Positions 54,198-55,671 of a DNA stretch of 64,000 nt are shown here, one piece after another (position 1 is the stretch's first letter; each line of letters begins with the position of its first letter). A program made the translations under genes and the position numbers. Source of the DNA: a virus. Taxonomy: Duplodnaviria > Caudoviricetes. Location: the IMG/VR virus record IMGVR_UViG_3300003937_000325. The stretch is one strand, 5' to 3'. The notes below the pieces were generated by a model that saw nothing but the letters and a program-made list of their open reading frames with translations, made no database searches and was not told where the DNA came from.

Positions 54198-54228
54198 TTT
54201 GACAATTGAAATAACTTAACTATATTTG
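54198..54228 (+). promoter_or_regulatory. Bacteroidetes housekeeping-sigma promoter of the tRNA array
   Basis: TTTG (54198-54201), 19-nt spacer, TATATTTG (54221-54228): canonical TTTG-N19-21-TAnnTTTG. Confidence 0.75.
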
Positions 54229-54261
54229 TAGAGTACAAACAAGTACAAAACTATTTTAAAA

Positions 54262-54333
54262 ATGAATAAACGAAACACACATAATATAATATTAAGAAAC
54301 TTATCAAGGATAAGAATCTTTAGTGTTATGTGA
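54262..54333 (+). CDS. Putative attenuator leader peptide (23 aa)
   Basis: MNKRNTHNIILRNLSRIRIFSVM, A-rich leader, tandem TGA TAG stops; lies between promoter and terminator. Confidence 0.55.
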   Translation: MNKRNTHNIILRNLSRIRIFSVM

Positions 54334-54387
54334 TAGTTCGGTAAAACATAATGTAAAAAATAGACTTAAAGCTATGAAAAAGAAGAA

Positions 54388-54419
54388 GCCCGAACAGAGA
54401 TGTTCGGGTTTTTTGTTTT
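54388..54419 (+). terminator. Intrinsic terminator / attenuator upstream of the tRNA array
   Basis: GCCCGAACA-gaga-TGTTCGGGT 9-bp stem followed by TTTTTGTTTT; 5' arm also complementary to GTTCGG at 54336-54341. Confidence 0.75.
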
Positions 54420-54430
54420 ATATTAGCAGT

Positions 54431-54442
54431 GTTCTTTGACAT
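54431..54442 (+). promoter_or_regulatory. boxA-like antitermination element
   Basis: GTTCTTTGACAT, identical to the copy at 55634-55645 and similar to 28298-28309. Confidence 0.6.
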
Positions 54443-54479
54443 CAAGATTAAGTAACGACACAGTATTCGGTAAAATACT

Positions 54480-54552
54480 GACCTCTTAGCTCAGCTGGTA
54501 GAGCATCACACTTTTAATGTGAGGGTCCAGGGTTCGAACCCCTGAGGGGTCA
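54480..54552 (+). tRNA. tRNA-Lys (TTT)
   Basis: GACCTCT/AGGGGTC acceptor, TCACA-CTTTTAA-TGTGA anticodon arm, GGTTCGAACC T-arm; no encoded CCA. Confidence 0.93.
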
Positions 54553-54612
54553 CTATCGCCAATACTAAATCGAGTTTTGCACCTCTACATAAAATATGGG
54601 TGTTTTCAACAT

Positions 54613-54686
54613 GGGGATGTAGCTCAGTTGGTTAGAGCAGGACTCTTATATGGTCAAGGTCGTAGGTTCAATTCCTACCGTCCCTA
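54613..54686 (+). tRNA. tRNA-Ile (TAT)
   Basis: GGGGATG/CGTCCCT acceptor, anticodon loop CTTATAT, GGTTCAATTCC T-arm; no encoded CCA. Confidence 0.88.
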
Positions 54687-54762
54687 CAATTAAATTAATT
54701 TAATAAAATAGTTGTTACTTAATCATTTGTACCGTACATTTACAGTATTGAAAGATATAGAT

Positions 54763-54848
54763 GCCGAAGTGGTGGAATTGGTAGACACGAGGGACTTAAA
54801 ATCCCTTGGACAGTAATGTCCGTGACGGTTCGAGCCCGTCCTTCGGTA
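54763..54848 (+). tRNA. tRNA-Leu (TAA)
   Basis: GCCGAAG/CTTCGGT acceptor, AGGGA-CTTAAAA-TCCCT arm, long variable arm GGACA-gtaa-TGTCC. Confidence 0.95.
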
Positions 54849-54851
54849 CAC

Positions 54852-54910
54852 AGATAGGGAGTTATCCAATACGCGTTGGAACTAGATAACTTTAAAATAG
54901 AACCCTATCT
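54852..54910 (+). ncRNA. Structured spacer element 1 (unknown)
   Basis: AGATAGGG/CCCTATCT and AGTTATC/GATAACT nested stems. Confidence 0.4.
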
Positions 54911-54935
54911 TTTACATGTACCCAACATACAATTT

Positions 54936-55024
54936 AAGAGAGGTAGTGAAGCTACAATGATATAGAAAAAGGTAAGGGTTAACCTCTATATCGTAGTAAC
55001 CCCGAAAGACCCGAAACCTCTCTT
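54936..55024 (+). ncRNA. Structured spacer element 2 (unknown)
   Basis: AAGAGAGGT/ACCTCTCTT, GCTAC/GTAGT and GATATAGA/TCTATATC nested stems. Confidence 0.45.
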
Positions 55025-55030
55025 TTACAT

Positions 55031-55104
55031 GCACCCATAGCTCAGCTGGATAGAGCATCTGCCTTCTAAGCAGACGGTCTCAGGTTCGAATCCTGATGGG
55101 TGTA
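55031..55104 (+). tRNA. tRNA-Arg (TCT)
   Basis: GCACCCA/TGGGTGT acceptor, TCTGC-CTTCTAA-GCAGA arm, GGTTCGAATCC T-arm. Confidence 0.95.
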
Positions 55105-55112
55105 CTAAATAC

Positions 55113-55228
55113 GGGGAGTTAGTCAAAGTGGTACGACGCTCCAACCTTAAGACAGAAAGCATCATACTAGTTACTCGATGTGATTAAGTTGGTTAGTAGA
55201 GGTAGGGGTTCGAATCCCCTACTCCCCC
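55113..55228 (+). ncRNA. tRNA-like RNA (116 nt) with an expanded anticodon region
   Basis: Perfect GGGGAGT/ACTCCCC acceptor, GTC/GAC D-stem with GG, AGGGG-TTCGAAT-CCCCT T-arm; about 40 extra nt in the anticodon/variable region. Confidence 0.65.
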
Positions 55229-55231
55229 GCT

Positions 55232-55303
55232 CTTAGATAGGTTTAACAACCGAACAACGAGGCGTCAAATCTCACGCCTACAAGTCGAAAGACGGAGTCT
55301 AAG
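55232..55303 (+). ncRNA. Four-way-junction structured element (unknown)
   Basis: CTTAGAT/GTCTAAG closing stem with three hairpins: GGTT/AACC, AGGCGT/ACGCCT, GTC-GAAA-GAC. Confidence 0.45.
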
Positions 55304-55314
55304 TGGAGTAATTA

Positions 55315-55552
55315 TACCGAATGGTGGAATTGGAAGACACGAGTCACTGTTAATGACTAATGTATCACACATGATGAGAAATGGGGTAACATCCATAGTG
55401 AAAAGAAGGAGGATGAATTGCCCCTAGATTAATCATCTACTCAAGAATAGGTAAGAGTTTGTAGTACCTTAAAGATTTATTCCTAACCAATATTGTTTAT
55501 ACTCTATTGGGACATCCGTGACAGTTGTAGTTGGATAAAATAGACTGTTAAC
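55315..55552 (+). ncRNA. tRNA-Leu-derived RNA with GTT anticodon loop and large variable-arm insertion
   Basis: 5' part nearly identical to tRNA-Leu (CCGAA.TGGTGGAATTGG.AGACACGAG); AGTCA-CTGTTAA-TGACT arm; TCCGTGACAGTT near 55515 mirrors TCCGTGACGGTT of tRNA-Leu; no intact T-loop or 3' acceptor strand. Confidence 0.55.
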
Positions 55553-55626
55553 GGACTTTTAGCTCAGTTGGTTAGAGCACCGCACTCATAATGCGTAGGT
55601 CGATGGTTCGAGTCCATCAAGGTCCA
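55553..55626 (+). tRNA. tRNA with CAT anticodon (elongator Met or lysidine-type Ile2)
   Basis: GGACTTT/AAGGTCC acceptor, CGCA-CTCATAA-TGCG arm, GGTTCGAGTCC T-arm; G1:C72 rules out initiator; Met vs Ile2 not resolvable by eye. Confidence 0.9.
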
Positions 55627-55671
55627 CTAGTGAGTTCTTTGACATAAAAATTAAATTAAAAAATAGAAATT

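Follow-up and report, generated by a model that had tools for sequence, protein, structure and literature searches.

Leader-peptide attenuators are familiar from amino-acid operons, the examples being trpL, hisL, leuL, thrL and the multivalent ilvL, and from the pheST synthetase operon with its leader pheM. The tRNA genes of phages are currently explained by codon-usage compensation or by escape from defences that target tRNAs. The locus described here, which lies in a 64,000-nucleotide stretch of viral DNA (the window), resembles attenuators of the trpL type in that a short ORF is placed between a promoter and an intrinsic terminator, in that a segment near the end of the ORF could pair with the 5' arm of the terminator and would be masked by a terminating ribosome, and in that the control codons lie upstream of the pairing segment and the signal would be the supply of charged tRNA. 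The distance from stop codon to terminator, approximately 55–80 nt, is also like that of trp. However, the genes that would be regulated are the tRNAs themselves, making the feedback direct, and the mixed amino-acid codons of the leader mirror the tRNA array. The locus differs further from trpL in belonging to a Bacteroidota phage, in lacking a Shine–Dalgarno sequence, in carrying a boxA past the terminator, and in having an antiterminator of 6 bp only and no clear 1:2 default-off pairing.

Two other systems invite comparison. As in the leaders of rRNA operons, an identical 12-nt boxA stands ahead of long untranslated RNA genes, and a second boxA past the phage tRNAs resembles the spacer boxA of rrn operons; unlike those leaders, the phage boxA heads an operon of tRNAs only and lies 11 nt past an intrinsic terminator. 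T-box riboswitches share the tRNA-status-dependent choice between terminator and antiterminator within a leader and the control of genes of the translation apparatus, but they work by direct binding of uncharged tRNA, without an ORF, and the leader studied here matches neither the T-box nor any other Rfam family: an Rfam scan of 53–58 kb returned tRNAs only, the leader being without a match save a chance-level one to MicC (E = 0.22). In one review of attenuators, leader peptides appear only at amino-acid and synthetase genes (PMC2965389). The preliminary description of this DNA, made from its letters alone, knew of no attenuator in which a tRNA operon senses its own codons, and our full-text literature searches likewise turned up no report of either leader-peptide attenuation or boxA ahead of phage tRNA arrays. 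The type of mechanism is known; what is new is its target, its mixture of codons and its coupling with boxA.

Our preferred reading, which we consider probable, is that the cassette attenuates transcription through a leader peptide (ribosome-mediated attenuation), thereby gating a tRNA operon headed by boxA, and that its leader is spelled in the codons of the array itself. If this is true, a leader in the array's own codons that is wired to a terminator would provide direct feedback on tRNA supply: classical attenuators sense charged tRNA in the service of amino-acid synthesis, and the same logic would here control tRNA genes. Among viral contigs at least 17 ORF families share the design, their tRNA sets differing from one to the next, and in it phages borrow the rRNA boxA of their hosts for a tRNA operon.

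The G+C content of the window is 32 %. We take its source to be a marine phage of Bacteroidota, because one of its genes encodes a type IX secretion C-terminal domain, because TATATTTG boxes stand ahead of its early genes, and because the runs that contain the stretch are seawater or marine metagenomes, with six metatranscriptome runs among them. A search of the GenBank phage collection found no close relative, the only matches being of tRNA size apart from weak ones between a 40-aa gene upstream of the leader and huge uncultured phages. Relatives were sought by scans of viral and metagenome contigs with five different anchors, and three lineages only of this exact leader were found in these contigs: the window type, whose members are 98–99 % identical, L006, which is ~80 % identical in the flanking genes, and L024. 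L006 (2312–2690, minus strand) and L024 both have an additional gene, encoding a membrane protein of ~125 aa, that separates the 40-aa ORF from the leader promoter; it is absent from the window lineage. A further contig, L052, that appeared to be a natural variant without the promoter and ORF start was discarded as most likely an assembly chimera, being a contig of 1.7x coverage in which three unrelated pieces are joined at a shared tRNA-Lys.

The features of the cassette, in order of position, are the following.

54198–54228, plus strand: early host-type promoter, with −33 element TTTG (54198–54201), a 19-nt spacer and −7 box TATATTTG (54221–54228).
54262–54333, plus strand: leader ORF of 23 codons followed by TGA, between promoter and terminator and open in three lineages.
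54278–54332, plus strand: hairpin H0 inside the ORF (codons 6–23), picked out by its folding z-score, the 5' arm of which holds the Ile-Ile-Leu-Arg codons.
54323–54331 with 54346–54354, plus strand: alternative hairpin H1, whose 3' arm (54346–54354) lies in the linker.
54336–54341, plus strand: GTTCGG, putative antiterminator strand and copy of the terminator 3' arm, which can pair with CCGAAC at 54390–54395.
54342–54387, plus strand: A-rich linker of 46 nt, picked out by its high conservation.
54360–54375, plus strand: small AUAG/CUAU hairpin in the linker.
54388–54419, plus strand: intrinsic terminator, with a 9-bp stem (54388–54396/54401–54409), a GAGA loop and a U6-G-U4 tract.
54431–54442, plus strand: boxA GTTCTTTGACAT, 11 nt past the U-tract and identical to the element of Bacteroidota rrn leaders.
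54461–54480, plus strand: small hairpin just before tRNA-Lys, displaying the second copy of TTCGGTAAA (54466–54474).
54480–55627, plus strand: putatively gated array of tRNA Lys(UUU), Ile(UAU), Leu(UAA), Arg(UCU) and Met(CAU), with two tRNA-like elements.
55634–55645, plus strand: second exact copy of boxA, directly after tRNA-Met.

The preliminary description had proposed a canonical promoter, a 23-codon ORF, a GTTCGG just past its stop codon that could pair with CCGAAC of the terminator, the terminator with its T-tract, and boxA and tRNAs beyond it, and all of these are present at the positions listed. Promoter, ORF with the same AUG, GTTCGG, terminator, boxA and array are kept in all three lineages at ~70–80 % identity. 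Conservation is uneven: it reaches ~90 % in the segment between the ORF's end and tRNA-Lys, and the leader is far less conserved in its ORF part than in its 3' half.

The promoter scores best of all within 52–58 kb when read as TTGACA-16-TATATT (11/12), but is better read in the Bacteroidota form TTTG-N19-TATATTTG. It is conserved in L006 and L024, the same −7 box is found 18–38 nt ahead of ~10 other early genes of the window, and host rrn promoters carry a −7 element of the same type. Transcription would start near 54235. In a search for host-type promoters the exact −7 box was absent between 54229 and 55733, leaving the tRNAs without a promoter of their own; since there is no such promoter between terminator and tRNAs and since boxA lies 11 nt past the U-tract, boxA and tRNAs need read-through transcription. 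The sole near-match within the array, a near-consensus −7 box TACATTTA at 54735 before tRNA-Leu with TTG 20 nt upstream, is present in L006 as TATATTTA and may be a weak internal promoter. Two promoter classes can be recognized in the window, one with TATATTTGT 18–38 nt ahead of early genes and a distinct one with TATTTATA directly ahead of ~13 genes, mostly on the minus strand, the latter class being probably late.

The boxA is of host form. At least 119 rrn operons, almost all from Bacteroidota, have the sequence GTTCTTTGAC 60–90 nt before the 5' end of 16S, and among the matches listed it is most often followed there by AT, so that the phage 12-mer corresponds to the host boxA; in the host loci (L058–L177) a TAnnTTTG promoter and small hairpins precede the rrn boxA. 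The phage element fits 10 of the 11 positions of the gamma-proteobacterial consensus GYTCTTTAANA (PMC5725501). In rRNA-operon antitermination leaders boxA is bound by NusB-NusE/S10 (PMC3177189, PMC5725501, PMC13753749), and by analogy with rrn operons, from work in E. coli and B. subtilis (PMC3177189, PMC13753749), the phage boxA should bind NusB-NusE and render polymerase termination-resistant over the untranslated array.

The leader ORF has no Shine–Dalgarno sequence, which is normal in this phage because its true starts have A-rich leaders; the ORF is preceded by 33 nt of A-rich leader, among all ATGs its start context stands at the 95th percentile, and its promoter-to-ATG spacing is that of other early genes. 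It comprises 23, 26 and 23 codons in the window, L006 and L024, respectively, and with the same AUG in each has remained open after ~20 substitutions in L024 and after ~15 substitutions and a 13-nt deletion in L006, the probability of this in a neutral simulation being 0.19–0.28 for L024 and 0.05–0.36 for L006. The preliminary description had looked to conservation of the ORF, and it is the reading frame and not the peptide that is conserved: window and L024 differ by 12 non-synonymous changes and one synonymous change, and the C-terminus is frame-shifted in L006. An open ORF with a drifting peptide fits the pattern of a cis-acting leader peptide. An invariant 11-nt island in the region of codons 9–12 (AUA AUA UUA AGA) carries AUA UUA AGA. 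The stop codon lies 2 nt before GUUCGG in the window and 11 nt after it in L006, where GTTCGG is inside the last ORF codons, as is typical of the class described below. A second ORF, at 54374–54439, which runs through the terminator and ends in boxA, was rejected because it is frame-shifted in L006.

At this locus eleven of the 23 codons match six anticodons, as the preliminary description had counted, although the tRNA-Thr that accounts for the ACA match is located 1.9 kb downstream, behind another promoter and further ORFs; the 'GTT element' that had been invoked for the Asn codons is not a called tRNA. Codon match amounts to 45–50 % as against 21.5 % in phage genes (P ~0.003–0.01). The preliminary description had cautioned that such codons are common in AT-rich DNA. 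When shuffles of matched A/T composition are taken as the reference, the enrichment at this single locus lacks significance, P for the three lineages being 0.11, 0.03 and 0.16, and of the window's small ORFs with an equal A/T content 9 % attain the same match.

The terminator core has a stability of −14.2 kcal/mol and is identical in L006; in L024 a single G-C pair is replaced by G-U and the U-tract is weaker. The GUUCGG:CCGAAC helix, whose shortness of 6 bp had been noted as a caveat from the outset, reaches −5.5 kcal/mol; equilibrium folding of the full leader always yields the terminator, which makes it uninformative, and forcing the antiterminator helix upon the leader costs 9–19 kcal/mol. 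Co-transcriptional folding, which the preliminary description had put forward as a check, favoured the switch in two lineages: in nascent RNA, before the terminator 3' arm emerges, the probability of the antiterminator was 0.66 for the window and 0.87 for L006, falling to 0 in both with a modelled ribosome at the stop codon, but it was only 0.04 for L024 in this pseudoknot-free model. The probability barely differs between an RNA without a ribosome and one with a ribosome stalled on the Ile-Leu-Arg codons; the antiterminator being predicted equally often in both cases, ON would be the default state. A 6-mer copy of the terminator 3' arm occurs upstream by chance in ~1 % of shuffles when the arm is taken as 9 nt and in 5 % when it is taken as 11 nt. 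As to compensatory pairs, the three lineages of the locus contain no two-sided change. With an antiterminator of 6 bp, an enrichment that is not significant when composition is matched and three lineages without compensatory changes, the window locus alone is insufficient; by itself it makes a moderate case, in which the attenuator reading is plausible and unproven.

What decides in its favour is comparison across the class to which the locus belongs. Viral contigs (IMG/VR) were scanned for GG-T6 followed after 4–34 nt by the 12-nt boxA, and 86 of the 119 terminator-plus-boxA sites examined, among the matches listed, have a tRNA on the same strand within 120 nt. By a rule fixed in this analysis, the ORF was taken to begin at whichever ATG comes first downstream of the last TAnnTTTG box and the array to be contiguous, some arrays being incomplete where the locus ends. 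Of the 65 cassettes that show both a −7 box and an ATG, again among the matches listed, 56 have a first-ATG ORF of 23–42 codons (median 34). These ORFs end 47–78 nt (median 54) before the U-tract and can be grouped in at least 17 peptide families, whose tRNA sets differ widely. The window cassette lies at the edge of the class, with the shortest ORF (23 codons), the longest distance from stop codon to U-tract (78 nt) and the shortest arm copy.

Fifteen families with at least three called tRNAs each, L006 being merged into the window family, were used for tests of the match between ORF and array. The proportion of residues served by the family's own array was 0.61, compared with 0.42 for the arrays of other families (permutation P<1e-5), and the proportion of codons served under wobble rules was 0.48 compared with 0.31 (permutation P<1e-5); the excess holds when the window family is left out. 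A family's own ORF ranked first for its array in 7 of the 15 families by amino acid and in 9 by codon, where one would be expected by chance. For the window array the window ORF came first of the 15 (0.55 vs 0.30 by amino acid, 0.45 vs 0.16 by codon). Compared with long genes of the same contigs, the ORFs match their arrays better by 0.19 at the amino-acid level (Wilcoxon P 1e-4) and by 0.17 at the codon level (P 3e-4). In L296, for example, where the array consists of Asp, Glu, Val, Leu, Ala and Trp tRNAs, 21 of the 29 leader residues are those amino acids; other example loci of the viral-contig set L178–L400 are L308, L344, L345, L371 and L325.

Each family's leader carries a copy of 5–11 nt (mean 7.4) of its own terminator 3' arm, usually 8–24 nt before the stop codon, and this copy changes along with the terminator (GTTCGG, AAGTTCAGGGT, AGATCCGGT, TCCGAGGT, CTTAGGGT). 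Copies of at least 6 nt were found for 87 % of own arms and for 12 % of the arms of other families, and the arm-copy shuffle test gave a Fisher combined P of 1.5e-13. The class-wide co-variation of arm copy and terminator supplies what the three lineages of the locus could not. The proposal of the preliminary description, that a ribosome-mediated attenuator written in array codons controls the tRNA array, gains its support from these class tests, in which the ORFs track their own tRNA sets, with the window ORF in first place for its array, and the arm copy co-varies with the terminator.

The sequence elements, their conservation and their class-wide co-variation, which are matters of observation, suggest a mechanism of the following kind. 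Host RNA polymerase would start at the early promoter, and a ribosome would load on the A-rich leader and translate the 23-codon ORF, about half of whose codons would be read by the downstream tRNAs (Lys AAA, Ile AUA, Leu UUA, Arg AGA, Met AUG). On reaching the stop codon the ribosome would cover GUUCGG, the terminator would form and a leader RNA of ~185 nt would result. When the tRNAs are scarce the ribosome would stall on the matching codons, GUUCGG would pair with CCGAAC of the terminator 5' arm and polymerase would read on, to transcribe 11 nt later the boxA of host rRNA-operon type, which presumably recruits NusB/S10 and yields a termination-resistant polymerase over the tRNA genes. The new tRNAs would relieve the stall and so close the feedback loop. 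In this scheme we infer the translation of the ORF, the stalling, the switch and the recruitment of Nus factors.

A bolder extension can be advanced only tentatively, and we regard it as possible but doubtful: that such cassettes form a widespread and hitherto undescribed class of 'tRNA-stats' in phages of Bacteroidota, whose codon-matched leaders would detect the loss of particular host tRNAs, including loss through cleavage by anticodon nucleases, and would switch on the matching replacement tRNAs, driven by host rRNA antitermination via the borrowed boxA. The link between the cassette and anticodon nucleases is speculation.

It is unlikely, in our judgement, that the attenuator reports the general speed of translation and not specific tRNAs, so that any slowdown or lack of ribosomes would free GUUCGG and the codons would merely mirror A/T-richness. 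The P values of 0.11–0.16 from composition-matched shuffles in two of the three lineages, the like folding of the ribosome-free and stalled states and the use of nearly every amino acid by some families of the class (L391) are all in keeping with it. However, the ORFs of the families track their own arrays and neither those of other families nor the gene usage of the phage, and the window ORF is the best of 15 for the window array.

We also consider it improbable that the leader is a non-translated structured RNA or a stand-alone small RNA, with an incidental ORF and a constitutively leaky terminator whose fixed fraction of read-through sets tRNA output. That the ORF is open in three lineages, and that the fixed rule finds one in 56 of 65 cassettes and 17 families among the matches listed, speaks against this explanation, which moreover gives no reason for the ORF–array match or the arm co-variation. 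The leader does have a promoter and a terminator, as a small RNA gene would, but boxA and the tRNAs, lacking a separate promoter, follow within 11–60 nt. Constraint at the RNA level is nevertheless suggested by H0, H1 and the repeated TTCGGTAAA, and the far greater conservation of the 3' half of the leader than of the ORF part and the much greater stability of the terminator than of the antiterminator likewise favour a structured leader. H0, which as a hairpin over the ORF also speaks for the attenuator, is significant in the window (z-score −3.9) and L024 (−4.2) and marginal in L006 (−1.8), and is a possible pause (1:2-like) element. The version of this explanation with a leaky terminator or small RNA and a codon match driven by composition was given up after the class-level tests.

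The attenuator model leaves the conserved 46-nt linker and the repeated TTCGGTAAA without explanation. The latter occurs only three times in 64 kb, and two of its copies (54337–54345 and 54466–54474) flank the terminator, each in a hairpin loop. These features could be accounted for by factor-dependent antitermination, in which a phage or host RNA-binding protein on the linker or the TTCGGTAAA loops would block the terminator in the manner of BglG/LicT or of N, and the host boxA does show use of Nus-type machinery. No candidate protein was found, though, the class-wide features of the ORF would be left over, and boxA, coming after the terminator, cannot help polymerase past it; we hold this explanation to be quite improbable. 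An ordinary early gene for a micro-protein of 23–26 aa with its own terminator, past which the tRNAs would be transcribed by incidental read-through, is highly improbable, for in spite of a promoter-to-ATG spacing and start context like those of real early genes the peptide is unconstrained (12 non-synonymous changes to one synonymous between window and L024) and its C-terminus is frame-shifted in L006.

Some further observations concern tRNA arrays. The tRNA-like element at 55113–55228 scores 39 bits over 116 nt with the Rfam tRNA model, has an insertion of ~40 nt in the anticodon region and received no ARAGORN call; a segment of 231 nt that contains it (55106–55336) is absent from the close relative G001. 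In L008, L009 and L016, which belong to another phage group, an ORF of 33 aa is conserved upstream of tRNA-Leu; it ends in GTT CTT TGA, final codons and stop together making a boxA-like motif, and in this group no terminator lies between the ORF and the array. Approximately 50 nt upstream of tRNA-Ile(UAU), at 54560–54612 in the window, are conserved in otherwise unrelated phage arrays (L012, L018, L019 and L021) and include a CUACAU that is complementary to the start of the tRNA.
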